Origin: Prosthecobacter sp.
Lineage (GTDB): Bacteria; Verrucomicrobiota; Verrucomicrobiia; Verrucomicrobiales; Verrucomicrobiaceae
Reading direction: 5' to 3'
NCBI GenBank assembly: GCA_044345215.1
Contig: JBIJBO010000002.1
Span: forward strand, 272-64,271
DNA length: 64,000 nucleotides
Both the position numbers and the translations under genes were made by a program. Shown in pieces: positions 12,666 to 38,817 of this stretch. Below the pieces are notes generated by a model, which worked only from the letters and a program-made list of their open reading frames with translations, was not told the DNA's origin and did not search any database. Position 1 is the first letter of the stretch. The number at the start of each line of letters is the position of its first letter.

Positions 12666-13235
12666 ATGGAAGATGTCCAACCCCGCATGCCCCCGCCTTC
12701 CGAAGAACTGCCCCTCGCCGGCACGTTGCTGCTGGCCGTGCCCTCACTGCGCGACCCGAGTTTCCGTCGTGCGGTCGTTTTCATTGCCGCCCATGACGCC
12801 GAGGAGGGTGCGTTCGGCTACGTGCTGAACCGGCCCCTGCACCAGCGGGTGGCCGAACTGTTGCCCGGTGAAAACCTGGGCCCGCTGGGCGAGGTGCCGG
12901 TTTACGCCGGCGGCCCGGTCGCGGCCGACAAGCTCGCCTTTGCCTCCCTGCGCTGGATCGGTCGCACCCTGCGCTGCCAGACCCACCTGACGGTCGAAGA
13001 CGCCCTGCACGAGCTTGGCCTGGGGCGCGAGGTGCGCGGCTTTGTCGGCTATTCCGGCTGGTCCGGCGGCCAGATTGAGAGCGAGATCGAGCGGCGTTCG
13101 TGGATCATCACACCGCCGAGCCGCGCGGTTCTGGCTCCCCGTGCCCCGGAGAACCTGTGGAGCGAGGTGCTGTGCGAGCTGGGGCCGGTGTTCGGCCTGA
13201 TGGCGCGGACGCCGGAGCGGGTGGAACTGAACTAG
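12666..13235 (+). CDS. YqgE/AlgH family (UPF0301/DUF179) protein
   Basis: 189 aa. LAGTLLLAVPSLRDPSFRRAVVFIAAHDAEEGAFGYVLNRPL and VYAGGPV match the family signature. The start could instead be ATG 12687. Confidence 0.85.
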   Translation: MEDVQPRMPPPSEELPLAGTLLLAVPSLRDPSFRRAVVFIAAHDAEEGAFGYVLNRPLHQRVAELLPGENLGPLGEVPVYAGGPVAADKLAFASLRWIGRTLRCQTHLTVEDALHELGLGREVRGFVGYSGWSGGQIESEIERRSWIITPPSRAVLAPRAPENLWSEVLCELGPVFGLMARTPERVELN

Positions 13236-13291
13236 TTCCCGGCGCCGCCGGCATTTGCCCCGGCGCGCTCTTGTGCTTGATTGGCGGCTTC

Positions 13292-15619
13292 ATGACCCAC
13301 GCCGTCCTCAGCCTTCTGCGCGAAAGCCGCCACCCGATGCGCATCAACCTCGTCGGGGTCGCCGGCTCGGGCATGAGCGGCCTGGCCTCGCTGCTTCTGT
13401 CGCTCGGCCACCGAGTCAGCGGCTCCGACAAGGTTTCGACCGTGGAAACCGACCGGCTTCAGAAGCTTGGCCTGCGCTTCTTTTCGCCGCACTGCGAGGA
13501 GGAGGTGGCGGACTGTGACATGGTGATCTACTCCAGCGCCATCAAGCCGGGCAACACCGCCTATGCCGCGGCCTACCGGCTGGGCATTCCGTTGGTGCGA
13601 CGCGCCGAGTCGCTGGCCGCGTTGATGGCAAACAAAAAGGGAGTGGTCGTGGGCGGCACCCACGGCAAGACCACCACCTCCGCGCTCACCGCGCATGTGC
13701 TCCGTCAGGGCGGACTCAGGCCAAGCCATTACGTCGGTGCCGAGATTCCCGTGCTGGGTTCCAACGCGCACTGGGATCCCGAGGGGGAGCTGTTTGTCGC
13801 CGAGGGCGACGAGAGCGACGGCACGCTGGTCAACTTTCATCCGGAGCATGCCATCATTCTCAACATCGAGCCTGAGCACCTGGATTTTTACGACGGCATC
13901 GAGTCCATCAAGGCGGTGTTCCGCCGCTTGCTGGAGCAGACGCCCGGTCTCTGGATCCACTGTGCCGAGGATCCGGTTGCCCGCGAGGTCTGCGGCGGCA
14001 CGGAGCGGTCGGTTTCCTACGGCTGGAGCCGAGACCACGATTACTCCGCGGAGATCGTCGAGATGAAGCCCGACCGCAGCGACTTCGTGGTCTATGCCAA
14101 GGGGGAGCGGCTTGGCGAGGCCACACTGGGCATTCCCGGCCGCCACAATGTTTCCAACGCGCTGGCCGCCATCGCGCTCGCCAGCCGGCTGGGCGTGCCC
14201 TTTGCGACGATCCGCGCCGCGCTGGCCAGCTTCCGCGGCGCGCGCCGGCGCTTCGAGATCCGCCACAGCGGCGAACGCTTCACGGTCGTTGATGACTATG
14301 GCCATCATCCGACCGAGATCGCCGCCACGCTCGCCACGGCACGCGGGCTGAAGCCGGGGCGGATCCTCTGCCTGTTTCAGCCGCACCGCTACAGCCGCAC
14401 CCAGCTTTTGAAGCGGGAATTCGGCGCCAGCTTTGACGACGTCGATGTGCTTTTTGTTGCCGATGTCTATGCCGCCAGCGAGAAACCGCTGCCAGGAGTC
14501 AGCGGTGCGACGATTGTCGAGGCGGTGGAACGGCACAAGGCCGAGACGGGGGTCGCGGTGCCGGTCTGCCAGAGCACGCCCGGCTTGTTGGAGGCGCGCT
14601 ATCGGGCCGGCAACGCCCTGCGCCCCGGGGATCTGCTCATCACCCTCGGCGCTGGCAATGTCCATGAGGTGGGGCGCTGCATCGCCCGTGACCTGGCGGT
14701 GCTGGAGAAGGTCTGGGTCCTGCTGGAGGCTCATGGCGGCGGCACGGCGCGGCTTTATGAACCGATGAGCCGCCACACAACCTTTCTGATTGGCGGTGCC
14801 GCGCAGTTCTGGATTGAGCCGCACACGGTCAACGGGTTTGCCGAGGTTGTCCGTTGCCTTCGTGCCGCGAGTGTGCCGATCCGGGTGATCGGTCGCGGTT
14901 CCAACCTGCTGGTGCGGGATGGAGGCATTCGTGGCGCGGTACTGCACCCCGCCAAGGGCGAATTTGAGGAGGTCAGGGTCGAGGGGGAAACGCTCGTTGC
15001 TGGTGCCGGGGCGCGCCTGAAAAAGATCGCCAGTGCCTCGCGCAACGCGGGTCTGGGCGGCTTCGAATGGATGGAGGGTGTGCCCGGCAACCTGGGTGGC
15101 GCCATTCGCATGAACGCCGGTGCCATGGGCACGGAGACCTTCGACCAGATTGTCAGCGTCCGTTTTGTCGACCGCGACGGCGTCCTGCGCGAGAAACCGC
15201 TGGCCGAGATTGCCCACCAGTATCGCAGTGCGCCCGAATTCGAGGAGTGCTATGTGGTTTCCGCCGTCCTGCGGGGCGCACCCGCCGAGCGTGCGCTCAT
15301 CGACGAGCGGCTGGCCGCGTCGCACCGCAAGCGGCGCGAGAGCCAGCCCGTGGGTGCCAGTGCCGGCTGCGTTTTCAAGAATCCGGAGGTCTGCGGCGCC
15401 GGTCGACTCGTCGACGAGCTCGGGCTCAAGGGGCGCCGCAACGGCGCTGCGGAGGTTTCGGTCGTGCACGGCAACTTCATCGTCAATCGCGGCGGTGCCA
15501 CGGCGCGCGAGGTGCTTGATCTCGCCGCCGAGGTCCAGGAGGTCGCTTTGCGCGAGCGCGGCGTGCGACTGGAACTGGAAGTTCGTGTCATTGGCGAGGA
15601 TGCGCCAATGCCGCTGTGA
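13292..15619 (+). CDS. murC: Fused UDP-N-acetylmuramate--L-alanine ligase / UDP-N-acetylenolpyruvoylglucosamine reductase (MurC-MurB)
   Basis: Internal ATG (MTHAVLSLLRE...) of track ORF 13100..15619, 775 aa. The MurC part has INLVGVAGSGMSGLA, GGTHGKTTTSAL, EGDESDG, DDYGHHPTEI and FQPHRYSRT. A linker of about 22 aa follows. The MurB part has MSRHTTFLIGGAAQFW, VIGRGSNLLVRDGGIRGAVL, GAIRMNAGAMG and AGCVFKNP. There is no stop between the two halves. Confidence 0.9.
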   Translation: MTHAVLSLLRESRHPMRINLVGVAGSGMSGLASLLLSLGHRVSGSDKVSTVETDRLQKLGLRFFSPHCEEEVADCDMVIYSSAIKPGNTAYAAAYRLGIPLVRRAESLAALMANKKGVVVGGTHGKTTTSALTAHVLRQGGLRPSHYVGAEIPVLGSNAHWDPEGELFVAEGDESDGTLVNFHPEHAIILNIEPEHLDFYDGIESIKAVFRRLLEQTPGLWIHCAEDPVAREVCGGTERSVSYGWSRDHDYSAEIVEMKPDRSDFVVYAKGERLGEATLGIPGRHNVSNALAAIALASRLGVPFATIRAALASFRGARRRFEIRHSGERFTVVDDYGHHPTEIAATLATARGLKPGRILCLFQPHRYSRTQLLKREFGASFDDVDVLFVADVYAASEKPLPGVSGATIVEAVERHKAETGVAVPVCQSTPGLLEARYRAGNALRPGDLLITLGAGNVHEVGRCIARDLAVLEKVWVLLEAHGGGTARLYEPMSRHTTFLIGGAAQFWIEPHTVNGFAEVVRCLRAASVPIRVIGRGSNLLVRDGGIRGAVLHPAKGEFEEVRVEGETLVAGAGARLKKIASASRNAGLGGFEWMEGVPGNLGGAIRMNAGAMGTETFDQIVSVRFVDRDGVLREKPLAEIAHQYRSAPEFEECYVVSAVLRGAPAERALIDERLAASHRKRRESQPVGASAGCVFKNPEVCGAGRLVDELGLKGRRNGAAEVSVVHGNFIVNRGGATAREVLDLAAEVQEVALRERGVRLELEVRVIGEDAPMPL

Positions 15620-18030: not shown

Positions 18031-19116
18031 TCACTCGAAGGAGTTCATGGCGATGCGGATGCCGTAGGCGAGCAGGGCCGTGACGGGGATGGTCATCACC
18101 CACGCCCAGATGATGCGCTCGACGAGGCTCCACTGAATGGCGTTCCAGCGCTTGGCCGCGCCAACGCCCATGATCGAAGTGGTGATCGTGTGGGTGGTGC
18201 TGACCGGCATGCCCATGACGCCGGTGACGGCAAGGATGGTGGCCGCCGTGGTCTCGGCGGCGAAGCCGTGCACGGGTTTCATCTTCACCATCTTGTGGCC
18301 GAGGGTCTTGATGATGCGCCAGCCACCCGCGTAGGTGCCGGCGGCCATGACGATGGCGCAGGTGGCGATGATCCAGAACGGAATCTCTGCCGACTTGTCC
18401 GGCACGCGCAGGAAGGACAGCCAGGAGGGCAGGTTGTCGAGCGTGCCCGCGGCTGTGGCGCCGTAAAGCGTGAGCATCATGATGCCCATCGTTTTCTGGG
18501 CGTCGGCCAGGCCGTGACCGAAGCCCATGTAGCCGGCGCTGGCGATCTGCAGCTTGCCGAACAGCGTGTTGACCGTGTGCGGCCGCCAGTTGCGAATGAT
18601 CAGGAAGAGCAGGCCCATGACGAGGAAGCCGACGCAGAGGCCGAGCGTGGGCGAACTGACCATGGGAATGACCACCTTGTGGTAGATGCCGTCCATCTTG
18701 CCGTCGGCCTTCTCGCGCGACCAGACGAGGACGTTCCAGTTGCCGTTGGAGGTGGCCAGTGCCGAGCCGATGAGGCCGCCGATGAGGGCGTGGCTCGAGC
18801 TCGAGGGCATGCCAAACCACCAGGTCAGCAGGTTCCAGATGATGCCGCCGAGCATGGCGCAAAAGACGGTCATCGTGGTGACGGTCACGACCTTGTCATC
18901 GATGATGCCGCTGTGGATGGTCTTGGCGACGGCCTGGCCGCAGAAGGCGCCGATGAGGTTCATGCCGGAGGCCAAAAGCAGGGCCTGGCGGGGAGTGAGC
19001 ACCTTGGTCGAAACCACGGTGGCAATGGCGTTGGCGGTGTCGTGGAAGCCGTTGATGTACTCGAAGGCGAGCACCACAAACAGCACCACGAACAGCAGAA
19101 GCAGGGCGGTGGTCAT
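18031..19116 (-). CDS. pit: Inorganic phosphate transporter, PiT family
   Basis: 361 aa. The N-terminus FEYINGFHDTANAIATVV and a C-terminal repeat with MPVSTTHTITTSIMGVG are the duplicated PiT signature. It is polytopic. Confidence 0.93.
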   Translation of the reverse strand: MTTALLLLFVVLFVVLAFEYINGFHDTANAIATVVSTKVLTPRQALLLASGMNLIGAFCGQAVAKTIHSGIIDDKVVTVTTMTVFCAMLGGIIWNLLTWWFGMPSSSSHALIGGLIGSALATSNGNWNVLVWSREKADGKMDGIYHKVVIPMVSSPTLGLCVGFLVMGLLFLIIRNWRPHTVNTLFGKLQIASAGYMGFGHGLADAQKTMGIMMLTLYGATAAGTLDNLPSWLSFLRVPDKSAEIPFWIIATCAIVMAAGTYAGGWRIIKTLGHKMVKMKPVHGFAAETTAATILAVTGVMGMPVSTTHTITTSIMGVGAAKRWNAIQWSLVERIIWAWVMTIPVTALLAYGIRIAMNSFE

Positions 19117-22455: not shown

Positions 22456-23415
22456 TTAGCGCTCCAGTTGGGCGCGGGTTTGGTCGATGACGCTGCGGGG
22501 CAGCGGGTAGTAACCGTCCTTGAGCACGACCTGTTGGCCATCGCGGCTGTGAATGAAGCGGATGAACTCGCGCGTGGCCGGATCAAGCGGCCGGCCGGGC
22601 TGCTTGTTGAGGTAGATGACCAGAAAGCGGGCGAGCGGATAGCGGCCGTTGATGCAGTTCTCGTAGGTGGGTTCGGCGAAGTCCGCGGCGGTTTCGCCGA
22701 CCGGCAGCACCCGAACGCCGGAGGTGCGGTAGCCGATCCCGGTGTAACCGAGCGCGTAGGGGTCGGCACCGACCGCCTGAACGACCGACGAGGAGCCGGG
22801 CTGCTCCTTGACGTGGCTTTTGAAGTCGCCGCGGCCAAGCACGTGTTCCTTAAAGAAACCGTAGGTGCCGGAGGCGCTGTTGCGACCGTACAGTGAGATG
22901 GCCCTGCCGCTCCAGGCGGTCACGCCGAGCTGGCCCCAGTCGCGCAGGTCGGCGGGCGCGCCGAGCCGGCGGGTCGCGGAAAACGCGGCGTCGAGTTCGG
23001 CCAATGTCAGGCCTCGCACGGGGTTGTCCTTGTGGACGAAGACGGCGAGGGCGTCCACCGCCACGCGCACGGCGAGCGGCGGGTAACCGAACCTCTTTTC
23101 GAAGGCATGGATTTCCTCGCGCTTCATTTCCCGGCTCATGGGTCCGAGCTGGCAGGTGCCGGCGATCAGGGCAGGGGGGGCGGTTGCCGAGCCCTTGCCC
23201 TCGACCTGGAGGCTGACGTTCGGGTAGCGCGCCTTGAATCCCTCGGCCCACAGGGTCATCAGATTGTTGAGGGTGTCCGAGCCGACCGAGATGATGTCGC
23301 CCGAGACGCCCTCGAGGCGCTGGTAGGCGGGAATGGCCGGATCGATTTCGACCGCCGCCGCCGGCGCGGCCGCGAGCGGCGCGCAGAGGAGGACAGCGAG
23401 ACGGAGGCGGCGCAT
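22456..23415 (-). CDS. pstS: Phosphate ABC transporter substrate-binding protein PstS (PBP-like)
   Basis: Internal ATG ([21 protein letters not shown], a signal peptide) of track ORF 22456..24318, 319 aa. Strings: [45 protein letters not shown] and [17 protein letters not shown]. The upstream 301 codons of the track ORF are antisense to pstB and were discarded. Confidence 0.88.
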
Positions 23416-23499
23416 GGTCCTTTCATGGCCGCTTCCGGTCGCCCTGACAAGAAGGAAGGTTGCGCTCCGCGCCGCCGGCGCGACATTGCCGCGCCTGCC

Positions 23500-24291
23500 A
23501 TGGCCGAGCCCGCCCCCAGTCCTGCCGTCGATCCGTCCCCGTCCATTCGGGTGTGCGACCTGGACTTTTTTTACGGTGCGCAGGCGGCACTGGCCGGGGT
23601 GAGTCTGGAAGTGCCGCGACGGCAGGCAACCGCTTTCATCGGCCCTTCCGGCTGTGGCAAGTCCACCCTGCTGCGCTGTTTCAACCGCATGAACGACCGC
23701 ATCGAGGGTGCGGTGATTCGCAACGGCAGCATCGAAGTCGAGGGCTACGACATCCGGGATCCCGGGTTGGATGTTGTGCGTCTGCGCCGCGAGGTCGGCA
23801 TGGTGTTTCAGCGTTCGAATCCCTTCCCGGGCAGCCTCTACGACAATGTGGCCTATGGTCTGCGCCTGCAGGGGGAGAAACGCCGTGACCGGCTGGATCA
23901 TGCGGTCGAGCAAAGCCTGCGCGCGGCCGGTCTCTGGGACGAGGTGAAGGATCAGCTGTCGGCCCCCGCCGTGGCATTGTCCGGCGGTCAGCAGCAGCGC
24001 CTGTGCATCGCCCGGGCCATCGCGCTGAAGCCCCGGGTGCTGCTTCTCGATGAACCCTGTTCTGCGCTCGACCCGCTGGCCAGCGCACGCATCGAGGACC
24101 TGATCCATGAACTCAAGCGGGAGTACACCTTGGTCATCGTCACCCACAACCTGCAGCAGGCGATGCGCATCACGGATTTCACCGCATTCTTTTGCGCCGG
24201 CCGGCTGGTCGAGTTCGGCGACACTCTGGGCTTTTTCGAGCAGCCAACTGAGAAGCTCAGCCGCGACTTCATCACCGGCCGATTTGGCTGA
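23500..24291 (+). CDS. pstB: Phosphate ABC transporter ATP-binding protein PstB
   Basis: Internal ATG ([10 protein letters not shown]...) of track ORF 23032..24291, 263 aa. Strings: [68 protein letters not shown] and the C-terminal FITGRFG. Confidence 0.95.
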
Positions 24292-24352
24292 GCTGGCGAA
24301 ATCACGGGTGACCGGCAACCGGCCGCGGCGTTAGGAGTTTCAGTCACTGCCC

Positions 24353-26350
24353 ATGAAACATCTGCTGCCCACACTCCTGATCGCCCTGCCGCTCGCCGCC
24401 CAGACGCCCTCGGTGGAACAGCGTTTTCGTGTCCTCGACCGCGATGAGGATGGTGTTGTCACTGAGGCGGAGTTGCCGCAAAAGGCGTGGCGCCGGTTGC
24501 TTGATGCCGATGGCGACGGCCGCATCACCCTGGCGGAGGCGCTTTCGGGGGCGGCGCGGTTGCGCGGGGCTCGCGGTCTTGGGCTGGGCGCAGCGACTGC
24601 GGCCGAGGCGTCGCCACCGCTGCAGGAGGCGCCCGCCGTGCTGAAGGCTGCCGAGCATGGCGTGGGGCGACGACTGCCCGATCTTGCCCTGCGTGAGCTT
24701 GAAGGTGCAGAGTCCTTGCTGTCGGCGCGGTTGCAGGGCGCCCGGGGACTCGTGTTTGCCTTACTGGGCGCCACCTGTCCCATCAGCGGCAAGCTTGGCC
24801 CTGAAATGGCCCGGCTGGAAAAGCAGGCCGACGCGCAGGGCCTGCGCTGGATTTGGGTTTGTCCGGTGGCGGCGGAATCGGCGGCGGACATCCGGGCCTT
24901 CACGGCCGCGCACGGCTTGAAGGCGCCGGTGGTGCACGACCGAGAGGGTGTGATCGCGACCGCACTGGCGGCCACTACCACAACCGAGTGTTTTCTCGTC
25001 GATGCCACCCGCACGCTGGTCTATCGCGGCGCGGTCAACGACCAATACGGACTCGGCTACAGCAAGGAGAAGGCGAGCCGGCACTACCTGCGCGAGGCAA
25101 TGACCGCCCTGCTGGGGGGTGATTTGCCGGAGGTGGCCGCGACCACGGCACCTGGCTGTGCGCTGGATGTGAAGACGGCCGCGGCCCCGGCGACCGGGCT
25201 GACCTATCATCACCAGATCGAGCGCATTCTGCAGACGCATTGCGTTGAGTGCCACCGCCGCGATGGCGTGGGGCCGTTCAGCCTGGAAACTTACGAGGAC
25301 GTGGTCGAGAACGCCGGCATGATTCGCCGTCAGGTGGAGCGCGGTGTCATGCCGCCCTGGTTTGCCGCGCCACCGGCGCACGGCGGGGCCACGCCGTGGA
25401 GCAATGACGCCGCGCTGCCGGAGCGCGACAAGGCGGAGTTGCTCGCCTGGCTGGCCGGCGACCGCCCGCGCGGCGATCCCGCCGACGCCCCGATGCCGCG
25501 CCGCTATCCCGCCGAGTGGCAACTGGGTTCGCCGGATGCCATCGTGCAGCTCTCGGCACCGATCGCCATCAAGGCCGAGGGCACGATGCCCTACCAGTTT
25601 GTCACCGTGACGACGGACTTTCCCGAGGATCGCTGGGTGCGCGCCTACGAGATCCTGCCGACCGACCGCAGCGTCGTGCATCACGTCATTGTGCAGGTGC
25701 ATGCGAAGGGCGCCCGGGTGCGCGACCGCGGCGAGGGTTCGGAGGGATATTGGGCCGCCTACGTCCCTGGCAACACCCATCATGCCTACCCGTCCGGTTT
25801 TGCCAAGAAGCTGCCGGCCGGCGCCACGGTCAGCTTCCAGATTCATTACACGCCGAACGGCCGTGCCACACGCGACCAGCTGCGGCTCGGCCTGCACTTC
25901 GCCAAGGAGCCGCCGCGCTACGTGGTTCACACGGCGGCGGTCGCACACGCCCGGTTGAACATTCCGCCGCATGCGGCCCGGCATGTCGAGGTCAAGGAGC
26001 AGACCGTGCCCTTCCCGATGAACGTGACGGGGCTGATGGCGCACATGCACGTGCGCGGCCGGGCCTTCAAGTTTGAGGTGCTGCCACCCGGCGGTGGTGA
26101 ACCGGAGGTGCTGCTCGACATCCCGCGGTACGACTTCAACTGGCAGCTGCGCTACGATTACGCGCAGCCGAAATTCCTGCCCGCCGGCAGTCGCGTGCGC
26201 CTGACCGCGGTGTTTGACAACAGCGCCGGCAACTCCGCGAATCCCGACCCGGACAAGACCGTGCGCTGGGGGCCGCAGACCCACGATGAGATGATGATCG
26301 GTTACTTCGAGTACTTTACACCACGCAAGGACGAAGTGGCGATGGAGTGA
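24353..26350 (+). CDS. Secreted multidomain redox protein: 2x EF-hand + thioredoxin-like (redoxin) + CxxCH haem motif + PHM/DBH-like copper monooxygenase domain
   Basis: 665 aa. Signal peptide MKHLLPTLLIALPLAAQ. EF loops DRDEDGVVTEAEL and DADGDGRITLAEA. A redoxin-like block has TCPIS. CVECH lies in a PSCyt-like context (HCVECHRRDGVGPFSLETYEDV). The C-terminal domain has VVHHVIV, QIHYTPNG, AHMHVRGRAF and THDEMMIGYFEYF, i.e. the HH...H...HxH...M ligand order of Cu2 monooxygenases. Confidence 0.8.
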   Translation: MKHLLPTLLIALPLAAQTPSVEQRFRVLDRDEDGVVTEAELPQKAWRRLLDADGDGRITLAEALSGAARLRGARGLGLGAATAAEASPPLQEAPAVLKAAEHGVGRRLPDLALRELEGAESLLSARLQGARGLVFALLGATCPISGKLGPEMARLEKQADAQGLRWIWVCPVAAESAADIRAFTAAHGLKAPVVHDREGVIATALAATTTTECFLVDATRTLVYRGAVNDQYGLGYSKEKASRHYLREAMTALLGGDLPEVAATTAPGCALDVKTAAAPATGLTYHHQIERILQTHCVECHRRDGVGPFSLETYEDVVENAGMIRRQVERGVMPPWFAAPPAHGGATPWSNDAALPERDKAELLAWLAGDRPRGDPADAPMPRRYPAEWQLGSPDAIVQLSAPIAIKAEGTMPYQFVTVTTDFPEDRWVRAYEILPTDRSVVHHVIVQVHAKGARVRDRGEGSEGYWAAYVPGNTHHAYPSGFAKKLPAGATVSFQIHYTPNGRATRDQLRLGLHFAKEPPRYVVHTAAVAHARLNIPPHAARHVEVKEQTVPFPMNVTGLMAHMHVRGRAFKFEVLPPGGGEPEVLLDIPRYDFNWQLRYDYAQPKFLPAGSRVRLTAVFDNSAGNSANPDPDKTVRWGPQTHDEMMIGYFEYFTPRKDEVAME

Positions 26351-26362
26351 CGGGGTTTGCCC

Positions 26363-28435
26363 TCACTGCATCACCGCGCGCGGGGTGTCGTCGCCAAAGA
26401 CGAAGGCCCTCACGCTGGCAAAACGCGGTGCCTGCAGCTGGGGATCGGCATCGAGGGCCTTTTCCGCCAGCCGACGCGCCAGCCTGACCAGGCGGGTGTC
26501 GGCGAGCATCTCGGCGAACTGCAGCGGCGCCTGGCCGCTTTGGGCGCGGCCGAGCAGGTCGCCCGGTCCGCGCCGGCGCAGATCCTCCTCGGAGATGCGG
26601 AAGCCGTCGTCGGTCTGTTCCAGGATGGCCAGTCGCTCCTTGGCTTCGTCGTCGCCATCCTTGACGAAGAGGACGCAGTAGGAGGCGTGCGGGCCGCGGC
26701 CGACGCGGCCGCGCAGCTGGTGCAGTTGGGCGAGGCCGAAGCGCTCGGCGTGATGGATGAACATGACGCTGGCGTTGGGCACATCGACGCCGACCTCGAT
26801 GACGGTCGTCGAGACGAGCACCTCGATGCGGCCGGCGCGGAACTCGCGCATGACCTGCTCCTTTTCCTCGGCGCTCATGCGGCCGTGCAGCAGGCCGGTC
26901 TGAAAATGCGGCAGCCGTTTGGCCCAGTCGGCGCAGCCCTTCGTCACCGCGGTGACGTCGAGCTTTTCCGATTCCTCGATGAGCGGGTAGACGAGGTAGG
27001 CCTGACGGCCCTGCTCCAGCTGCTCGAGCAGGAACTTGGCCGCCTCGTCCTGCTTCGCCGCCGGCCGCACGCGGGTGACGACCTTGCCGCGGGCGCGCGG
27101 CCGCTCGTCGATCGTCGAGACGTCGAGGTCGCCGTAGATCGTCAGTGTCAGCGTGCGCGGGATGGGCGTGGCGGTCATCACCAGCACATCGGGCGAGTGG
27201 CCCTTTTGAATCAGGCGCGCGCGCTGGGCGACGCCGAACTTGTGCTGCTCGTCGATCACCACCAGGCCGAGGTTGTGCAGCAGGGCCTCGTCGTGCAGCA
27301 GGGCGTGTGTGCCGATGACGACATCGGCGCGGCGGTCGGTGAAGAAGCCGCCGCCGTCGTCGGAGCGCGCGGCGGTGCGCAGGGCGACGCCCAGGCCGAG
27401 CGGCTCCAGCCAGCTTTGGGCGGTGCGGAAGTGCTGTTCGGCAAGGATCTGCGTGGGAGCCATGAGGGCGGCCTGTCGGCCGTTCTCGACCGCTCCTAGC
27501 ATGGCGGCGATTGCCACCACGGTTTTGCCACTGCCGACGTCGCCGTGCAGCAGGCGGTTCATCGGTGCGGGCGAGGCCATGTCGCGCCGGATTTCCTGCA
27601 GGCAGCGCTGCTGGGCACCCGTGAGCGGGAAGGGCAGGGCCGCCTCGAAGCGCGCCGCCAGCTCGTCGGCCGGCTGGGCGTGGCCACCCGAGGCGGTGAG
27701 CGCGCGCCGGCGCCGCACGACGCGGAGTTGGTAGCCGTAGAATTCCTCGAGGGCAAGGTAGCGGCGCGCGGTGACGAGTGCCTCGGGGCTGCCGGCAAAA
27801 TGGACGTCACGCAGGGCGCGCGCGCGGTTCCAGCCGGCGAACTCGCTGTCCGCCCGCGGAGCTGGCAGCAGGTCGGGGGTGAAGTCCGGTCTGAGCGACT
27901 GGAACACGTGCCAGGCCGCGGTGCGCAGGGCCTTTTGGGTGATGCCGGCGCGCAGGCGGTAGACCGGCGTCAGGCGACCGGTGTGGATGCCCGGCTCGTC
28001 CTCGCCACCGAGCACCTCGTAGTCCGGATGATCCATCGACAGGCGGCCCTTGAATTCCTTGATGCGGCCGAAGACGGCGAGTTCCTGGCCCTCGGCGATG
28101 ACGCGGCTGAGAAAGGCCATGTTCCACCAGCGCAGGGTCAGTTGCGCGCCAAGGGCGCCACCGGCCAGGGGTTCCACCTGCGCCTCAAAGAGCCCGGCAC
28201 CGCGTCGGCGACCGAAGAAGCGGCTGCCCGCCTTGAGCACGCGCACCTGATGGCAGACCGGCTCCAGGCCGGGCTGGAAGATCGCGGCCCCGGCCTGGCG
28301 ACGGTCCTCATGGCGGAAGGGCAGCCATTCGACGATCTCGGCGACGCGTTCCATGCCCTCCTTGGCGAGTGACTTCCGCACGCGCGCCGGCAGGCCGGGC
28401 ACGGCATCGAGCGGGGCGTCCAGGGAGAGGGGCAT
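26363..28435 (-). CDS. recG: ATP-dependent DNA helicase RecG
   Basis: 690 aa. It has an N-terminal wedge/OB region, Walker A GDVGSGKTVVA, DEQHKFGV, MTATPIPRTL and LHGRMSAEEKEQVMREFRAGRIEVLVSTTVIEVGVDVPNASVM. Confidence 0.95.
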   Translation of the reverse strand: MPLSLDAPLDAVPGLPARVRKSLAKEGMERVAEIVEWLPFRHEDRRQAGAAIFQPGLEPVCHQVRVLKAGSRFFGRRRGAGLFEAQVEPLAGGALGAQLTLRWWNMAFLSRVIAEGQELAVFGRIKEFKGRLSMDHPDYEVLGGEDEPGIHTGRLTPVYRLRAGITQKALRTAAWHVFQSLRPDFTPDLLPAPRADSEFAGWNRARALRDVHFAGSPEALVTARRYLALEEFYGYQLRVVRRRRALTASGGHAQPADELAARFEAALPFPLTGAQQRCLQEIRRDMASPAPMNRLLHGDVGSGKTVVAIAAMLGAVENGRQAALMAPTQILAEQHFRTAQSWLEPLGLGVALRTAARSDDGGGFFTDRRADVVIGTHALLHDEALLHNLGLVVIDEQHKFGVAQRARLIQKGHSPDVLVMTATPIPRTLTLTIYGDLDVSTIDERPRARGKVVTRVRPAAKQDEAAKFLLEQLEQGRQAYLVYPLIEESEKLDVTAVTKGCADWAKRLPHFQTGLLHGRMSAEEKEQVMREFRAGRIEVLVSTTVIEVGVDVPNASVMFIHHAERFGLAQLHQLRGRVGRGPHASYCVLFVKDGDDEAKERLAILEQTDDGFRISEEDLRRRGPGDLLGRAQSGQAPLQFAEMLADTRLVRLARRLAEKALDADPQLQAPRFASVRAFVFGDDTPRAVMQ

Positions 28436-29526: not shown

Positions 29527-30963
29527 GTGCCGCCGCGGTTCATGAACACGCCGACCCTGACGACGCTTTCCACCATCAATGCCGATGGTTCGCGACAGTT
29601 TGTGCATCCGGCGGATGTCCAGGGCCGCTTCACGCGCTGGCGCCGCGGGTCGGCCCTCCTGCTGCTGGTGATCTACGTTGCGCTGCCCTGGATTCCGGTC
29701 AACGGTTTCCCGGCCGTCTTCCTCGACGTGCAGACGCGGCGATTCCACTTCTTCGGTCTCACCCTCGCCGCCCAGGATCTTTGGGTGGGGTTTTTCCTCA
29801 TCACCGGGTTGGCCTTCGCCCTGTTTTTTGTCACCTCGCTGTTTGGTCGCGTCTGGTGCGGCTGGACCTGTCCGTACACGGTGTTCCTGGAGCATGTCTA
29901 CCGGCGCATCGAGCGCTGGATTGACGGCGATGCCGCGGCTCGGCGGCGTTTGGAGAAGGCGCCGTGGACAGGGGGCAAGATCGCCCGTCGCGTTTTCAAG
30001 CAGGCGATCTTCCTGCTGGTTTCGGCGCTGATTGCCCACGTCTTCCTGAGCTACTTTGTCTCCATTCGCGGGCTCTACGACATGATGCAGCGCTCGCCGC
30101 AGGAGCATGCCCTGGCCTTTGGCGTTGTCGTCTTTCTGACCTGCAGCCTGTATTTTTCGTTCAGCTGGTTCCGCGAGCAGTTCTGCATCATCCTCTGTCC
30201 CTATGGACGCCTGCAGTCGGCGCTGACCGACGACCACTCCGTGGTCATCGGTTACGACAAGCAGCGGGGCGAGCCGCGCGGCAAGGCCGGCACGACCTCG
30301 GGTGCCTGTGTCGACTGTCGCCGCTGTGTCCAGGTTTGTCCGACCGGCATTGACATCCGCAACGGGCTGCAGCTTGAATGCATCGGCTGTGCCGCCTGCG
30401 TCGATGCCTGCGATGACATCATGCTCAAGCTCAAGCGGCCGACCGGGCTGGTGCGCTATGATTCGCACGCCGGGTTGCACGGCGGTCGCACCAAGCTGGT
30501 GCGGGCGCGCACGGTCTTTTATTCGGCCATCCTGCTTGCCGGCGCGGTGGCCTTCCTGTTCGCCGCCTCGCGCATCGAGCCATTGCGCGCGAGTGTGGTG
30601 CGCATGGTCGGCTCGCCCTACTACGTGGCCGACGGCGTGGTGCGCAACCAGTTCCTGGTGCGCGTCATCAACAAGCGCAATGAACCCTCGACCTACCGGT
30701 TGGAGCTGACGGGTGCCGCGCCTCCGGGGCTGCAGGTCACCGGTGCCGAGGAGGCGTTGCGCCTGGAGGCGATGGGCGAGGAACAGAAAACACTCGTGCT
30801 GTCCCTGCCCGAAGCCGGCTTCAGCGGCCCGTTCAAGCTGCAGGTCAAGGTCACCGAAACCGCCAGCGGCGCCAGCATGACGACGCGTGTCATGGAGTTC
30901 CTCGGTCCCGACCCCCGCCTCAAATCCGATGTTCCGCTCAATCCGCGAGATTTTGTCCAGTAA
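29527..30963 (+). CDS. ccoG: Cytochrome c oxidase accessory protein CcoG/FixG (4Fe-4S ferredoxin-type membrane protein)
   Basis: 478 aa. Strings: GRVWCGWTCPYTVFLE and FCIILCPYGRLQS. The two ferredoxin clusters are CVDCRRCVQVCP and CIGCAACVDACD. A C-terminal Ig-like region follows. ATG 29542 is an alternative start. Confidence 0.9.
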   Translation: MPPRFMNTPTLTTLSTINADGSRQFVHPADVQGRFTRWRRGSALLLLVIYVALPWIPVNGFPAVFLDVQTRRFHFFGLTLAAQDLWVGFFLITGLAFALFFVTSLFGRVWCGWTCPYTVFLEHVYRRIERWIDGDAAARRRLEKAPWTGGKIARRVFKQAIFLLVSALIAHVFLSYFVSIRGLYDMMQRSPQEHALAFGVVVFLTCSLYFSFSWFREQFCIILCPYGRLQSALTDDHSVVIGYDKQRGEPRGKAGTTSGACVDCRRCVQVCPTGIDIRNGLQLECIGCAACVDACDDIMLKLKRPTGLVRYDSHAGLHGGRTKLVRARTVFYSAILLAGAVAFLFAASRIEPLRASVVRMVGSPYYVADGVVRNQFLVRVINKRNEPSTYRLELTGAAPPGLQVTGAEEALRLEAMGEEQKTLVLSLPEAGFSGPFKLQVKVTETASGASMTTRVMEFLGPDPRLKSDVPLNPRDFVQ

Positions 30964-31090
30964 GCCCTGGTTGTGGGTCGTGCTGCTTGTCGCGGTCTTC
31001 CTGACCGCGTGGTTCTGTTTCATCCGCATCGCCCTCGCCAACCAGCCGCCGACGGTGCCGCTGGAAATCCTGCCTGCCACCGTCCGATGA
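30929..31090 (+). CDS. Small single-TM membrane protein in the FixH position (FixH-like N-terminal helix only)
   Basis: Internal ATG (MFRSIREILSSKPWLWVVLLVAVFLTAWFCFIRIALANQP...) of track ORF 30887..31090, 53 aa. Its stop overlaps the next start as ATGA at 31087-31090. The start is uncertain, and it overlaps the ccoG 3' end. Confidence 0.4.
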   Translation: MFRSIREILSSKPWLWVVLLVAVFLTAWFCFIRIALANQPPTVPLEILPATVR

Positions 31091-31776
31091 TGCCGATCGA
31101 CACCAGTGCCGCCGCCTTTCTCGCGGGTCTGGTCACCAGCGTGCACTGCGTCGGCATGTGCGGGCCGCTGTCCTGTTCCTGGGCGGTCAGTGCCTCGCCC
31201 GGTTCAGCGGTGTTCTTCCGTGACACGGGGCTTTATCATGCGGGCCGGCTGCTGGCCTATGGTTTGGTGGGCGCGCTCGCCGGTGCGGTCGGCGTCGTGC
31301 CCCTGGGCTTTTTCCAGCACGGCGCCGGGCTCGTGCTGCCCTGGCTCATGGTGCTGGCCTTCGCCCTCGTCGGACTGGGTCTTGATCAGCGCCTGCCCAA
31401 GCCGGGTTTTCTGGCGCGGCCGCTGCGCCGGCTGCAGACCGCGGCGTTTCGCTTGAAGAGCGGCCCGCGCTCCGGCCTGCTCGGTCTGGCGACGCCGCTT
31501 CTTCCCTGCGGGCCACTCTACCTGATTTTTGGTTTGGCGCTGGCCAACGGCTCGGCGCTCAAGGGCGCGGGCTTCACGGTGGCCTTCGGCCTCGGCACGC
31601 TGCCGTTGCTTTGGCTGGCGCAGACCGGCCTGCACCGTCTGGGGGGCTTCCTGTCGCCCGCCGCCCTTGGCCGCCTCCAGCGCGGACTTGCCCTTGGCAC
31701 GGCCCTGCTGCTGGCCTGGCGACTGCGCGGCACCCTCGAATTCAGTGCCGCGACGCTGCCGAGTTGCTGCCACTGA
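31087..31776 (+). CDS. DsbD_2 / TauE-SafE-like membrane protein commonly linked to ccoG-fixH clusters
   Basis: Internal ATG (MMPIDTSAAAFLAGLVTSVHCVGMCGPL...) of track ORF 30973..31776, 229 aa. It is polytopic, with an HCxxMCGP motif near the N-terminus, PLLPCGPLY in the middle, and a C-terminus ending ...LPSCCH. Confidence 0.75.
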   Translation: MMPIDTSAAAFLAGLVTSVHCVGMCGPLSCSWAVSASPGSAVFFRDTGLYHAGRLLAYGLVGALAGAVGVVPLGFFQHGAGLVLPWLMVLAFALVGLGLDQRLPKPGFLARPLRRLQTAAFRLKSGPRSGLLGLATPLLPCGPLYLIFGLALANGSALKGAGFTVAFGLGTLPLLWLAQTGLHRLGGFLSPAALGRLQRGLALGTALLLAWRLRGTLEFSAATLPSCCH

Positions 31777-31973
31777 AGGGGGCTGGCGCGGTTGTGCGGA
31801 GCGGAGAGCCTGGTGCAGGCAGGACTGGGATCCGAACACCGCCCCTTCCCCGCAGCTTGCCGGCCCTCTGCCGGCACTGGCCCTCGAGGCCAGCCGGCGG
31901 TCTCCTTCCGGTCTTTTTTCATGGCCGGCACACCCAACACAACGTCGGCGACGTTAAGCGGTTGAACTCCACC

Positions 31974-32546
31974 ATGGGACCCGTTGCCGACATCTGGAAG
32001 CACTGCTTTGAAAGCATCGCGCCGCGGCTGCTGCTCTACGCCTGCCAGCTCTGCCTGTCGCGGGCCGATGCAGAGGACGTCGTGCAGATGGCCTTCGTGC
32101 GCTGGTGGCGGCGGTTCCCCGACGGCGACGAGCGGCACGTTCCGCTTCTGTATGCCGCAGTGCGGACGATAGCGTTGGACCAGCGCCGCAGCAGGCAGCG
32201 CCGCATTGCCCGCGAGGTCGCCTCGGAGGTGGCGCTGCCACAGGGGGACGCCGCCGTCTTTGATCCAGCCCCGGAGCAGCGCGAAACCGCGGCCATCGTC
32301 CAGCAGGCACTGGAGGAACTGCCCGAGTCGCAGCGCGAGGTGGTGACTCTCAAACTCTGGGGTGGCCTGACCTTCGCGCAGATCGCCGAGACCACGGGCG
32401 AGTCGATCAACACCGTCTCCAGTCGCTACCGCTACGCCCTGCAGGCGTTGGAAAAGCGCCTCGCGCCACGTCGCGAGGAGCTGGTGCTCGAGCCTTCGCC
32501 CCCCATCCTGATGGCCTTTCCCCAACCCGCCAGTCCCCTGCCATGA
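31974..32546 (+). CDS. ECF-type RNA polymerase sigma-70 family factor
   Basis: Internal ATG (MGPVADIWKHCFESIAPRLLLYA...) of track ORF 31611..32546, 190 aa. Region 2 is DAEDVVQMAFVRWWRRF. Region 4 is the HTH LTFAQIAETTGESINTVSSRYRYALQALEK. Confidence 0.85.
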   Translation: MGPVADIWKHCFESIAPRLLLYACQLCLSRADAEDVVQMAFVRWWRRFPDGDERHVPLLYAAVRTIALDQRRSRQRRIAREVASEVALPQGDAAVFDPAPEQRETAAIVQQALEELPESQREVVTLKLWGGLTFAQIAETTGESINTVSSRYRYALQALEKRLAPRREELVLEPSPPILMAFPQPASPLP

Positions 32547-32983
32547 ACGATCTTGAATCCTTGCTCTCCGGTCTGGCGCCACGCGGCCCGTCGCAGGCGC
32601 TCCATGAACGTGTCGCACACGATCTGGATCTCGACCGCCAATGGCTGCGTGAACGGTATCGACCGCGCCACTGGTTGACGCCGCTGGGATGGGCCACCCT
32701 GGGTGCGGCGGCCGCCTTGGCGCTGAGCTCCGCGCTGACGCCCGCGACCGGCCCGGTTAGCGTGGCAGCGTCCACGACGTTGGTGCCTGCCGGCACCATC
32801 CGCGAGGTGGTTCACACGGAGGATGAAGGCGTCGCTTTCAATGAAGCCGAGCAAAGCCACGAGCAGCGGCTGCGGCTCTACTCGGTCGAGCGCCAGGACT
32901 GGATCGACCCGCGCGACGGTGCCCGCATCACGGTCGAGCGTCCCCGCGAGGAGCATCTCGTCCTGCCGGTGTCCTATCAGTGA
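32543..32983 (+). CDS. Putative anti-sigma factor (single-pass membrane protein)
   Basis: 146 aa. Its ATG overlaps the sigma-factor stop (ATGA at 32543-32546). One central TM helix ([22 protein letters not shown]). Assigned by position and topology only. Confidence 0.5.
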   Translation: MNDLESLLSGLAPRGPSQALHERVAHDLDLDRQWLRERYRPRHWLTPLGWATLGAAAALALSSALTPATGPVSVAASTTLVPAGTIREVVHTEDEGVAFNEAEQSHEQRLRLYSVERQDWIDPRDGARITVERPREEHLVLPVSYQ

Positions 32984-36353: not shown

Positions 36354-37337
36354 TCAGGCGAGAAGCGGCAGCAGGGTTTCCAGTTCGGGCAGTTCGGCAC
36401 AGACGACGGCGAGGTTGCGAACGCCGGCGGGAATGTGCTGCTCAAAGTGGGGCTTGCCCTGATTCCGGCTCAGATTGGCGTAGGCGCCCAGAGCCTGCAT
36501 CAGACGCTGGGCGGCGCATTGCAGCACCACGACGCGCAACTCGTCCAGGGGCAGTCCGCGCAGGCTGGCATAGAACTCCAGAAGCTGGTCGCGCTCGTTG
36601 CGGCTGAGGGTCACATACGGATCAAAGAGCAGCGAGGCGAGGTCATACTCGGCCAGCCCGGGGCGCAGGCCCTGGTAGTCGACCAGCCAGGCCGCGTTAT
36701 CGCGGAGCAGGATGTTCTGACTCTGGAAATCCCGGTGCACGAGGCAGCGCGGTCGTTCGGCGAGGCAGCGGCGCAGGCTGGCAAGCGCCGCGTGGGCCGC
36801 TGCGTGGTCGGCACCTGCCGTTTCACGTCCCAGATGTCCGCGCACGAAGTGCTCCAGGAAGTAGTTCTGTTCCCACGCGTAAAGATCCTCGTCGAACTCG
36901 GGTTCCATGGCGGTCACCTCCTCGGGGGCGAGCTGCCCGGCTGCGACGGCATGAATCTTGGCAGCCTCGCGCAGGGCTGCCTGATAGAGCGGGCGACGCT
37001 GGTCCCAGGGATCGTCGCGGTGCGCATGCAGGTCGTCCTGTCCGAGGTCTTCCAGCCAAACGAAGAGCCGCTGCTCATCGACGCCCAGGATGGCCGGCAC
37101 GCGCACTCCCAAGGCAGACAGCCGACGCGTGGCGGGCACAAATTTGGGATTGTCGCGCCGTGCCAGGGTGTAGATCATCAGGATCATCGGCGGCTGCCCG
37201 GCGTCTGCCCAGCGGAAGCGGTAGTAATGGCGGTCGGAGCCCCCCTTGAGGATGGGCTCAACCTCGCAGGCGCAGTCCTGCATCGCGGGAAAGCGCTGGC
37301 GCGTCAGGATGAGCAGGGCCTCGTGTTCGGGTGGCAT
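36354..37337 (-). CDS. Aminoglycoside-phosphotransferase-fold kinase, AmgK-like (anomeric MurNAc/GlcNAc kinase candidate)
   Basis: Internal ATG (MPPEHEALLILTRQRF...) of track ORF 36354..37430, 327 aa. It has SDRHYYR, the catalytic loop LVHRDFQSQNILL, and LVDYQGLRPGLAEYDLASLL. The substrate assignment is inferred from family resemblance only. Confidence 0.68.
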   Translation of the reverse strand: MPPEHEALLILTRQRFPAMQDCACEVEPILKGGSDRHYYRFRWADAGQPPMILMIYTLARRDNPKFVPATRRLSALGVRVPAILGVDEQRLFVWLEDLGQDDLHAHRDDPWDQRRPLYQAALREAAKIHAVAAGQLAPEEVTAMEPEFDEDLYAWEQNYFLEHFVRGHLGRETAGADHAAAHAALASLRRCLAERPRCLVHRDFQSQNILLRDNAAWLVDYQGLRPGLAEYDLASLLFDPYVTLSRNERDQLLEFYASLRGLPLDELRVVVLQCAAQRLMQALGAYANLSRNQGKPHFEQHIPAGVRNLAVVCAELPELETLLPLLA

Positions 37338-37468
37338 CAAGGGCGATGTAGCGTCGTCCCGCGGCTCCCGCAACCGCGAGCTGCATGGCCGGGCTGTGGG
37401 AAAAAACATCGGAATCTGCCAGAAAGCCATCGTTCATGCCGCTTGTTAAGCTTGCAACCCATTCCGCC

Positions 37469-38716
37469 ATGCGCCCGACCTTCCTGATCCTGCTCGCCGC
37501 CTGTCTTCCTGCCCTCGCCGATTGGCCCGAATTCCGCGGTCCCGGTCGCCAGGGGCACAGCGAGGCGGCTGAACTGCCGGTGGAGTGGAATCCGGCGTCG
37601 CAACGCGGCATCCGCTGGAAGGTGCCGGTGGCCGGCGTCGGCTGGTCCTCTCCGGTGGTTGCCGGGGGACGCATTTATCTGACCACCGCCGTGCCTGAAG
37701 GCGGCATCGACAAGCCTGGGGCAGCACGCAGCCTGCGCGCACTCTGCCTGGAGGCGGCCGACGGTCGGCTGGTTTGGGACCGCGAAGTTTTCCTGCAGGC
37801 GCCGGATGCGCCGGCGGTGCACAAGAAGAACAGTCATGCCAGTCCGACCCCGGTGTTTCAGGCGGGCCGGCTGTATGTGCATTTTGGTCATCAGGGCAGT
37901 GCCTGCCTGGAGGCGGCCGACGGCAAGGTGGTCTGGAGCACGCGCGAGTTTGCCTATGCCCCGGTGCACGGCAACGGCGGCAGTCCGGTGCTCGAGGGCG
38001 GGCTGTTCATCTTCAACGCGGACGCTGCGGAAAAGCCGGCGGTGATCGCGCTCGACCAGGCCACCGGGCAGCTTTGCTGGCGCTTTGAGCGGGTCAGCGA
38101 CGCCAAGAACAAATTCTCCTTCTGCACGCCGCTGGTCATCCAGGTCAACGGCGCCCGCCAGCTCATCAGCGCCGGCAGTGGCGTCGTCAACGCCCTTGAT
38201 CCCGCCACCGGCCGCGAGATCTGGAAGGTGCGCTACGGGGATGGTTACTCGGTCGTGCCGCGACCGGTCTTTGCCCACGGACTGCTCTACTTGGGCACCG
38301 GCTACAACAAGCCCATTGCCCTGGCCATTCGCGTTGATGGCGCCGGCGATGTCACCGGCAGCCACATTGCCTGGCAGATCGACAAGTTTGTGCCGCACAA
38401 TCCGAGCATGATCGTGGTTGGCGAGGAGCTGTACTTTGTCGCCGACAACGGGGTGCTTACCTGCGCCGATGCAAAGACCGGGCAGGTGCATTATCAGGAG
38501 CGCTGCACGGGGCCGATCAGCGCCTCGATTCTGCATGCCGGCGGCCGGCTCTACCTGCAGGATGAAAAGGGCCTCGGGGTCGTGGCCCAGTCCGGCAAGA
38601 GCTTTCGTGTCCTCTTCAAGAACGACCTTGGCGAGCGTTCGCTCGCCTCGCACGCCGTGGTCGACCAAGACCTGCTGATTCGGACCGAGAACCATCTCTG
38701 GCGGATCGGTCGGTGA
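37469..38716 (+). CDS. Secreted PQQ-like (BamB-type) beta-propeller repeat protein
   Basis: Internal ATG (MRPTFLILLAACLPALADWPEFRGPGRQG...) of track ORF 37385..38716, 415 aa. It has repeated SSPVV.GGRIYL / G.LY.. blades. Confidence 0.8.
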   Translation: MRPTFLILLAACLPALADWPEFRGPGRQGHSEAAELPVEWNPASQRGIRWKVPVAGVGWSSPVVAGGRIYLTTAVPEGGIDKPGAARSLRALCLEAADGRLVWDREVFLQAPDAPAVHKKNSHASPTPVFQAGRLYVHFGHQGSACLEAADGKVVWSTREFAYAPVHGNGGSPVLEGGLFIFNADAAEKPAVIALDQATGQLCWRFERVSDAKNKFSFCTPLVIQVNGARQLISAGSGVVNALDPATGREIWKVRYGDGYSVVPRPVFAHGLLYLGTGYNKPIALAIRVDGAGDVTGSHIAWQIDKFVPHNPSMIVVGEELYFVADNGVLTCADAKTGQVHYQERCTGPISASILHAGGRLYLQDEKGLGVVAQSGKSFRVLFKNDLGERSLASHAVVDQDLLIRTENHLWRIGR

Positions 38717-38817
38717 CGATCGCCAGGGTGCGTTGCCCGCCTTGTCGGCAAAGATCCCTGCCGCCGTGAGGCAGGGGCTTGGTCCATTGCGGATGTTGTC
38801 TGCCTGCGTGCCCGGGA

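Follow-up and report, generated by a model that had tools for sequence, protein, structure and literature searches.

Peptidylglycine alpha-hydroxylating monooxygenase (PHM), represented structurally by the rat PAM catalytic core (PDB 1PHM/1OPM/1SDW/3MLL), has the same two-jelly-roll catalytic core as dopamine beta-hydroxylase (DBH), tyramine beta-monooxygenase (TBM) and MOXD1 (PDB 4ZEL). In animals, PHM serves to produce amidated hormones and DBH to produce noradrenaline. PHM contains five disulfides and depends on free ascorbate, while DBH has an additional DOMON beta-sandwich N-terminal to its copper core, a domain with relatives in other proteins that bind haem. The literature that we searched presents PHM, DBH and TBM as a small family of eukaryotic enzymes; the only members named in a 2025 review by a PHM specialist are PHM, DBM and TBM (PMC12164859), and in a 2022 survey PHM is said to be "widespread in eukaryotes" (PMC8812541). 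In this study, we examined a 64,000-nucleotide stretch of DNA from a freshwater Prosthecobacter sp. (the window; contig JBIJBO010000002.1), in which a gene on the + strand at 24353..26350, with an ATG start and the stop codon included, encodes an exported 665-residue protein composed of an EF-hand pair, a redoxin-fold domain, a putative c-type cytochrome and a PHM/DBH-like C-terminal region. From its sequence and predicted structure, this protein would represent a bacterial branch of the noncoupled binuclear copper monooxygenases, one with a fused haem c domain and no disulfides. We estimate at roughly 0.6 the probability that it acts, outside the cytoplasm, as a cytochrome-fed and ascorbate-independent binuclear copper monooxygenase. 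The original prediction, made from the letters of the window, had proposed one polypeptide of four modules at this position; the open reading frame is intact and each of the motifs lies where that prediction had put it.

The assignment of the copper core starts from its fold. An AlphaFold2 model of the full protein (31 homologues, mean pLDDT 78.9, pTM 0.67) has helical and beta regions that fit the four modules, and when it was compared with the PDB using Foldseek the top 29 matches consisted entirely of rat PHM and human DBH (E 1.6e-13 to 2.5e-10, probability 1.0), each alignment running over approximately 280-315 columns and both jelly-roll subdomains. TMt was 0.53-0.66 for PHM, whose best match had an E of 1.6e-13, and 0.38 for the longer DBH chain, which was matched at E 4.2e-13 over 314 columns with 16% identity. 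Identity to PHM in these alignments was 12-16%, and no bacterial PDB entry was found among the fold matches of the PHM-like core.

The predicted copper ligands follow the same pattern at the level of individual residues. For this comparison the rat PHM core sequence was rebuilt and then verified against PDB 4e4z, and hhalign was used to align it with a set of 17 divergent cytochrome and PHM-like modules (alignment A2; 383 columns, mean column identity 31%), which gave a probability of 87% and an E of 3.9e-6 over 232 columns. In the N-subdomain (approximately residues 395-520; 25535..25912), located by Foldseek against PHM/DBH and by hhalign, the CuH-type histidines H443 and H444 of VVHHV (441-445; nt 25679-25684) fall on PHM H107/H108, and H498 of QIHY (496-499; nt 25844-25846) falls on H172, with Q496-I-H498-Y corresponding to Q170-V-H172-Y. 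In the C-subdomain (approximately residues 523-660; 25919..26332), located by hhalign and the Pfam model Cu2_monoox_C, the CuM-type ligands H564 and H566 of HMHVRG (564-569; nt 26042-26044 and 26048-26050) fall on H242 and H244 (H564-M-H566 on H242-T-H244). The third of these, M647 of DEMM (645-648; nt 26291-26293), falls on M314 (D645-E646-M647 on D312-E313-M314), and Y651 falls on Y318. All six copper ligands and the equivalents of the second-sphere residues Q170 and E313 are therefore in register with rat PHM, and the spacing between ligands is similar (54/66/81 residues here, 64/70/70 in PHM). The PHM/DBH-like order of histidines and methionines, noted in the original prediction from motifs, thus has behind it both a fold match and a complete CuH/CuM set.

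Conservation singles out the same residues. Only 40 of the 383 columns of A2 are invariant, and all 10 predicted metal ligands (C297, C300, H301, M333, H443, H444, H498, H564, H566 and M647) are among them (hypergeometric P 5e-11). The ligands are retained almost without exception across 395 relatives, none of them in fewer than 99% of the aligned sequences: the CxxCH motif in 385/385, Met333 in 390/390, H443 and H444 in 394/394, H498 in 393/395, H564 and H566 in 391/392, and M647 in 388/389. The PHM-like region holds 14 histidines and 6 methionines, of which only the ligand set is invariant in both divergent alignments (A2 and A3). Judged by these alignments the family is under strong purifying selection and, by modelled fold and aligned ligands, the C-terminal domain is a member of the noncoupled binuclear copper monooxygenase superfamily (PHM/DBH/TBM).

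Directly N-terminal to this core, CxxCH conservation and the family profile delimit a putative c-type cytochrome domain (residues 283-370; 25199..25462). It contains the haem-attachment motif CVECH (C297-V-E-C300-H301, residues 297-301; nt 25241-25255) and a predicted distal ligand, Met333 of MPPW (nt 25349-25351). When the HMMER family profile was compared with PDB sequences, the matches were weak and exclusively to c-type cytochromes, namely the hydrazine synthase alpha haem domain, PccH, cytochrome c6 and CcoP. In the alignment with cytochrome c6, the two CxxCH motifs coincide and M333-P-P-W matches the M-P-A-W in which the distal Met of c6 is found. With both CxxCH and a candidate distal Met, the domain would resemble class I cytochromes c, and in one relative (P0163) the same domain passes the Pfam threshold for Cytochrome_CBB3 (34.1 bits). 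The haem motif had been called PSCyt-like; the CxxCH stands at its position, but the family name does not, as PSCyt (PSCyt1, PF07635) gave no match at E<=1 in the Pfam search.

Placed beside the described enzymes, the window protein shares with PHM the two-jelly-roll core, the HH...H and HxH...M ligand sets and the equivalents of Q170, E313 and Y318. It differs in being bacterial and, as predicted, extracytoplasmic, in having neither disulfides nor a PAL partner, in the replacement of R240 and N316, and in carrying a fused c-type cytochrome where PHM relies on free ascorbate. Like DBH, it has an extra domain N-terminal to the copper core; in DBH, however, this is the DOMON beta-sandwich, whereas here it would be a class-I-type cytochrome c with covalent haem. 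The dimerisation domain of DBH is missing, and the redoxin and EF-hand modules are additions. A functional analogy, for which we claim no homology, can be drawn to the cytochrome of cellobiose dehydrogenase that feeds the copper of lytic polysaccharide monooxygenase (LPMO) and to cytochrome b561-DOMON proteins. In these systems a haem domain serves as one-electron donor to an extracytoplasmic, O2-activating copper site. Their fold is unrelated, their haem is b-type and their copper is a mononuclear histidine brace, in contrast to the haem c predicted here.

By analogy with PHM and DBH, metal content, electron path and chemistry would be as follows. The haem c would take single electrons from periplasmic respiratory carriers and reduce CuH, in place of the ascorbate used by the eukaryotic enzymes. 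From CuH (H443, H444, H498) the electron would then cross the cleft between the domains to reach CuM (H564, H566, M647), and O2 bound at reduced CuM would give a cupric-superoxo species that abstracts hydrogen from a C-H bond, with the result that an extracytoplasmic substrate would be hydroxylated there. Peptidylglycine is unlikely to be that substrate, because two of the three residues that hold the substrate in PHM are replaced. The haem-fed periplasmic copper monooxygenase that had been suggested from motifs is thus also the reading that we prefer from sequence and model, given the predicted c-type haem domain immediately upstream of the core.

Several observations weigh against this interpretation. 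For the window protein, Cu2_monoox_C (PF03712) scored 14.4 bits over residues 551-661, below its cut-off of 23, and Pfam did not report PF01082. The PF03712 threshold is passed in relatives (P0131, 30.4 bits; P0223, 25.0; P0138, 23.7), and the family is a distant branch of the PHM/DBH superfamily. The HMMER family profile did not reach PHM among PDB sequences, which is why hhalign and the fold search were needed. Within the core, PHM R240 is replaced by M562 (Met in 257/395 relatives, otherwise L, F, S or T) and N316 by I649, with Y318 kept as Y651, and no cysteine occurs between residues 301 and 665, so that all the PHM disulfides are missing. With these residues replaced and the disulfides gone, the chemistry could differ from that of PHM. 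On the haem side, Cytochrome_CBB3 (residues 288-336) remained below its threshold in the window protein (15.8 bits against 27). A model of the isolated cytochrome domain (pLDDT 79.8), free of haem like all AlphaFold models, had no significant fold match (best E = 2), with small cytochromes c making up 9 of its 24 weak matches. Beyond the protein, no conserved partner gene was found in five orthologue loci, in 88 loci whose neighbouring genes were clustered into families and in three Acidobacteria loci that encode stand-alone units. The commonest neighbour family occurs in only 28 of the 88 loci, all from one clade; without a conserved neighbour, the gene is best regarded as a stand-alone unit whose context gives no clue to the substrate. 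Finally, the full-text literature available to us, whose coverage is incomplete, yielded no description of a bacterial PHM/DBH homologue or of its biochemistry.

The partnership of cytochrome and copper core extends far beyond Prosthecobacter. Residues 283-665 were searched against 1.84 billion cluster representatives, and counted in clusters of 50% identity the family amounts to 13,127 at E<=1e-3, 7,202 at E<=1e-10 and 2,226 at E<=1e-30. The matches span the cytochrome and both PHM-like subdomains as a single unit. This unit occurs bare, as proteins of approximately 405-430 residues with a signal peptide, which abound in Acidobacteria (Blastocatellia, Bryobacteraceae) under the names "thiol-disulfide isomerase", "cytochrome c" or "hypothetical". 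It also occurs joined to a redoxin domain (approximately 600 residues), the majority form among the 150 nearest representatives, as tandem double units of approximately 870 residues, and together with CBM48/AMPK1_CBM, LolA-like or BlaR1-type M56 modules. In all of these, the stand-alone proteins of approximately 410 residues included, the cytochrome lies directly N-terminal to the PHM-like core. The survey thus identifies cytochrome c plus PHM-like core as the invariant partnership and the redoxin domain and EF-hands as add-ons, and this constant order is the pattern that an obligatory partnership would be predicted to leave. No NCBIfam model covers the family. Some of its members already carry a Cu2_monoox_C tag in domain databases.

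Individual members add detail to this picture. P0279-P0287 (approximately 830-890 residues) score about double against the module profile (approximately 1000 bits) and have about twice its length, as would be expected if the entire unit of cytochrome c and PHM-like core had been duplicated in tandem. P0196 and P0177 are fused to CBM48/AMPK1_CBM glycogen-binding modules, P0177 having an N-terminal BlaR1-type M56 domain as well; such fusions could hint at glycan substrates or at anchoring to glycans. P0254/P0275, P0307, P0343 and P0345 are stand-alone cytochrome and PHM-like proteins with no redoxin domain, yet they are recorded publicly as "thiol-disulfide isomerase", a name that appears to be a propagated misannotation.

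We consider the odds about even that these proteins form a very large bacterial family (at least 13,000 clusters of 50% identity), spread over Verrucomicrobiota and Acidobacteriota, of self-sufficient, ascorbate-free noncoupled binuclear copper monooxygenases driven by cytochrome c; they would be the prokaryotic equivalent of PHM/DBH and possibly their root. Were this so, PHM/DBH chemistry would be common in environmental bacteria, and a new extracytoplasmic hydroxylation reaction would be present in abundant freshwater and soil phyla. A disulfide-free enzyme with its own haem donor would in addition offer a tractable system for the long-debated transfer of electrons from CuH to CuM, because the haem provides a built-in spectroscopic and electrochemical handle. 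The widespread naming of redoxin-free members as "thiol-disulfide isomerase" would also be corrected.

The redoxin domain bears on the alternatives to a copper monooxygenase. It spans residues 104-275 (24662..25177) with a PRX_like1-type thioredoxin fold, as indicated by Pfam, PDB sequence relatives and Foldseek. The Pfam search bears out the modules of the original prediction in part: Redoxin (36.5 bits, cut-off 26.6) and AhpC-TSA (33.1 bits, cut-off 26), both over residues 104-231, are the only models clearly past threshold in the protein, with the EF-hand models right at theirs, no PSCyt model matching and Cu2_monoox_C falling short. In the PDB, the full-length profile was swamped by calmodulin and ResA matches; the nearest relatives of residues 104-275 by both sequence and fold are 3u5r, 2cvb and 2ywi (Foldseek TMt 0.74-0.76). 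ResA also appears among the Foldseek matches of the full model, after PHM/DBH and together with thioredoxin-fold proteins. The solved PRX_like1-type proteins (3U5R, SMc02350; 2CVB/2YWO, Thermus; 2YWI, Geobacillus) resemble the window domain in a C-terminal extension that ends in a conserved G-C motif. As chains of 188-218 residues they lack haem and copper domains, unlike the window protein.

The active-site cysteine, Cys142, lies in GATCPIS (residues 139-145; nt 24776-24778), as placed by alignment. The original prediction had read TCPIS as a CxxS site; the thioredoxin fold stands, but the motif can be read in two registers, of which GxxC is the more probable. Against 2ywi (CNHCPFV) and 3u5r (SNRCPFV), Cys142 corresponds to the second, or "CP", cysteine, with Gly139 in place of the first; only the comparison with a more distant protein, a ResA variant with CPHC, gave the CxxS register. 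In view of the 2ywi and 3u5r alignments, the candidate reading as a classic monothiol thioredoxin of the CxxS type was downgraded. The dithiol is missing in either register. No redoxin-bearing relative has a cysteine at position -3, which is occupied by G (107), S (88) or D (20), and a cysteine at +3 from the Cys142 position was present in 13 of approximately 240. In having a single cysteine the window domain resembles 3U5R, whereas 2YWI has the CNHC dithiol. The cis-Pro is likewise lost: Thr211 aligns with the Pro of T-P-E/D, which 2cvb, 3u5r and 2ywi all keep, and threonine is found there in 120 of 121 close relatives, with the proline kept in 36 of 118 distant ones. With no dithiol and the cis-Pro lost, the domain is, on its sequence, a degenerate accessory and not a canonical thiol-disulfide oxidoreductase.

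Cys142 has a probable partner in Cys269 of APGC (nt 25157-25159), identified by co-occurrence. Of 118 diverse relatives with a redoxin domain, both cysteines are present in 102 and absent from 11, Cys142 occurs alone in 5 and Cys269 alone in none. The simplest reading of this pattern is that the two form a structural disulfide, although they may also constitute a Prx-like (peroxiredoxin-like) peroxidatic/resolving pair, a single-turnover thiol site or a metal site. PHM and DBH leak H2O2 and are damaged by it, and their assays contain catalase. As a secondary hypothesis, the fused Prx-like module might protect the enzyme against H2O2; the Thr/Ser at -3 of the peroxiredoxin motif P-x-x-x-T/S-x-x-C is not conserved and many family members have no redoxin module, both of which weigh against such a role.

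The same cofactors could serve an oxidase, or a protein that handles peroxide or copper and acts on no organic substrate, with a periplasmic function in oxidative or metal stress. Electrons from the cytochrome would then reduce O2 or H2O2 at copper, or the copper sites would oxidise Cu(I), and the Prx-like domain would remove peroxide. The pairing of a single cysteine at the peroxidatic position with a remote partner resembles an atypical 2-Cys peroxiredoxin, uncoupled PHM and DBH are known to leak H2O2, and no substrate-related neighbour genes were found in the loci examined, all of which is compatible with this proposal. It is the main rival to a monooxygenase, but we nevertheless consider it unlikely. 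The CuM methionine and the equivalents of Q170 and E313, which in PHM belong to substrate-coupled O2 activation, are strictly kept, whereas the peroxiredoxin Thr/Ser at position -3 is not, G, S or D being found there. Both cysteines are absent from 11 of the 118 redoxin-bearing relatives and many members lack the redoxin domain altogether, so that peroxide handling cannot be the core function of the family.

A reading in which catalysis resides mainly in the redoxin domain, as a thiol-disulfide isomerase or peroxiredoxin, and the C-terminal region only binds or serves as a scaffold is very unlikely. Database names ("redoxin domain-containing protein", "thiol-disulfide isomerase" or "peroxiredoxin") and the standing of Redoxin and AhpC-TSA as sole Pfam models above threshold would suggest as much. 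Yet the CxxC dithiol is absent and the cis-Pro almost uniformly threonine in close relatives, a large share of the family has no redoxin domain while still being named "thiol-disulfide isomerase", and strict invariance is seen at the predicted haem and copper ligands and not at residues of the redoxin domain.

That the protein is a true peptidylglycine alpha-hydroxylating monooxygenase, a bacterial PHM orthologue catalysing the first step of amidation on secreted peptides, is highly improbable. PHM structures are its best fold matches and the DEM-x-x-x-Y motif is kept, including Y651 for Y318; however, R240, which binds the glycine carboxylate, is M562 here and N316 is I649, none of the loci examined has a gene for a PAL-like lyase or a precursor peptide close by, and identity to PHM is only 12-16%. 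Because neither the substrate residues nor the disulfides are conserved, the protein should not be filed as PHM proper (EC 1.14.17.3).

An assembly or sequencing artefact, in which two or more genes were wrongly joined, can be dismissed for practical purposes, because the same uninterrupted architecture recurs in at least 80 independent genome loci and 120 listed homologues and the DNA was recovered in more than 20 independent lake/freshwater metagenome runs, which together establish a single real gene. Its translation is 100% identical to a database protein (P0001), and approximately 2,000 homologues were scored for the full-length protein. The best 120 of these are full-length and have 57-89% identity; most belong to Verrucomicrobiota (Prosthecobacter and its relatives), and their database names are "redoxin domain-containing protein" or "mono/diheme cytochrome c family protein". 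The genome scan, with a degenerate pattern from alignment A1, recovered at least 551 genomic loci encoding relatives. The best 80 of these are all from Verrucomicrobiota, with Prosthecobacter, Brevifollis, Chthoniobacterales and Opitutales included, and share the architecture of the window protein, which occurs across the phylum.

The N-terminus reads as that of a protein exported via Sec. By inspection only, residues 1-17 approximately (MKHLLPTLLIALPLAAQ; 24353..24403) resemble a Sec-type signal peptide, with a basic n-region, a hydrophobic core, an A-A-Q end and no lipobox Cys; the N-terminus is conserved among homologues, and pLDDT is below 50 for residues 1-19. An EF-hand pair follows (24437..24541), made up of DRDEDGVVTEAE (residues 29-40; nt 24437-24472) and DADGDGRITLAE (residues 51-62; nt 24503-24538). 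Both loops, placed here by the original prediction, fit the canonical pattern D-x-[DNS]-x-[DNSG]-G-x-[ILV]-x-x-x-E. The Pfam scores are borderline (EF-hand_6, 25.1 with a cut-off of 25; EF-hand_1, 25.3 with a cut-off of 25.4), and D29, D33, G34, E40, D51, G56, T59 and E62 are invariant in alignment A1. The number of loops varies among the 120 close homologues, with four in 89, two, as here, in 25 and three in 6, and most of 150 representatives of the wider family have none, EF-hands being N-terminal in approximately 6 and C-terminal in approximately 20. As the association is recurrent but movable, we regard the EF-hands as accessory, with a role such as stability or anchoring, and find no support for a regulatory switch. 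In a protein outside the cytoplasm, the pair would more likely bind Ca2+ in such a structural or anchoring capacity, and the calcium regulation once proposed for the enzyme is not upheld, given an element so variable in number and place and missing from most of the wider family.

Upstream, the gene is preceded by pstB (approximately 23467..24291, + strand; TIGR00972, 354 bits with a cut-off of 343) and, divergent from it, by a PstS-family gene (22456..23430, - strand; TIGR02136). Neither pstC nor pstA is adjacent to this pair, in agreement with the earlier description of an orphan pstB 61 nt away. The 61-nt spacer from the pstB stop to the start codon (24292..24352) has AGGAG 15 nt upstream of the ATG, and a scan found no promoter- or terminator-like site in it. 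Co-transcription with pstB, raised in the original prediction, is possible but not supported by these observations. Downstream lies the convergent recG, and with only 12 nt between the two stop codons (26350-26363) there is no room for separate intrinsic terminators. Among the five orthologue loci, the pstS/pstB/recG synteny is kept only in the 89%-identical relative; it is absent at 73% identity, in Prosthecobacter dejongeii and in the other genomes examined. Since it is conserved in this close relative alone, the adjacency of pstB says nothing about function. A PHO4/PitA-type phosphate transporter (18031-19116) is located 3 kb further upstream of the PstS/pstB pair.

Elsewhere in the window, 3 kb downstream of the gene, two frames encode first a FixG/CcoG-like 4Fe-4S protein and then a membrane protein of the DsbD_2 family (29527-31776, + strand), and the same pair recurs in the 89%-identical relative. 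In cbb3 oxidase assembly, CcoG acts as a cupric reductase, and a link between this pair and the supply of copper to the PHM-like protein is possible. Two open reading frames of 718 and 366 residues (37337-39493 and 31518-32618, both on the - strand) have no Pfam match at E<=1e-5 and may be either spurious antisense frames, in sequence of 65-68% GC, or genuine genes. A frame of 1088 residues at 42159-45425 (+ strand) contains many immunoglobulin-like domains (Ig_3, Ig_2, I-set, He_PIG) and probably encodes a surface or adhesion protein. At 13100-15619 (+ strand), a frame of 839 residues combines Mur ligase domains (MurC-like) with FAD_binding_4 and MurB_C and is apparently a MurC-MurB fusion. 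There are reports of such fusions from Verrucomicrobia, in line with the taxonomy assigned to the window.

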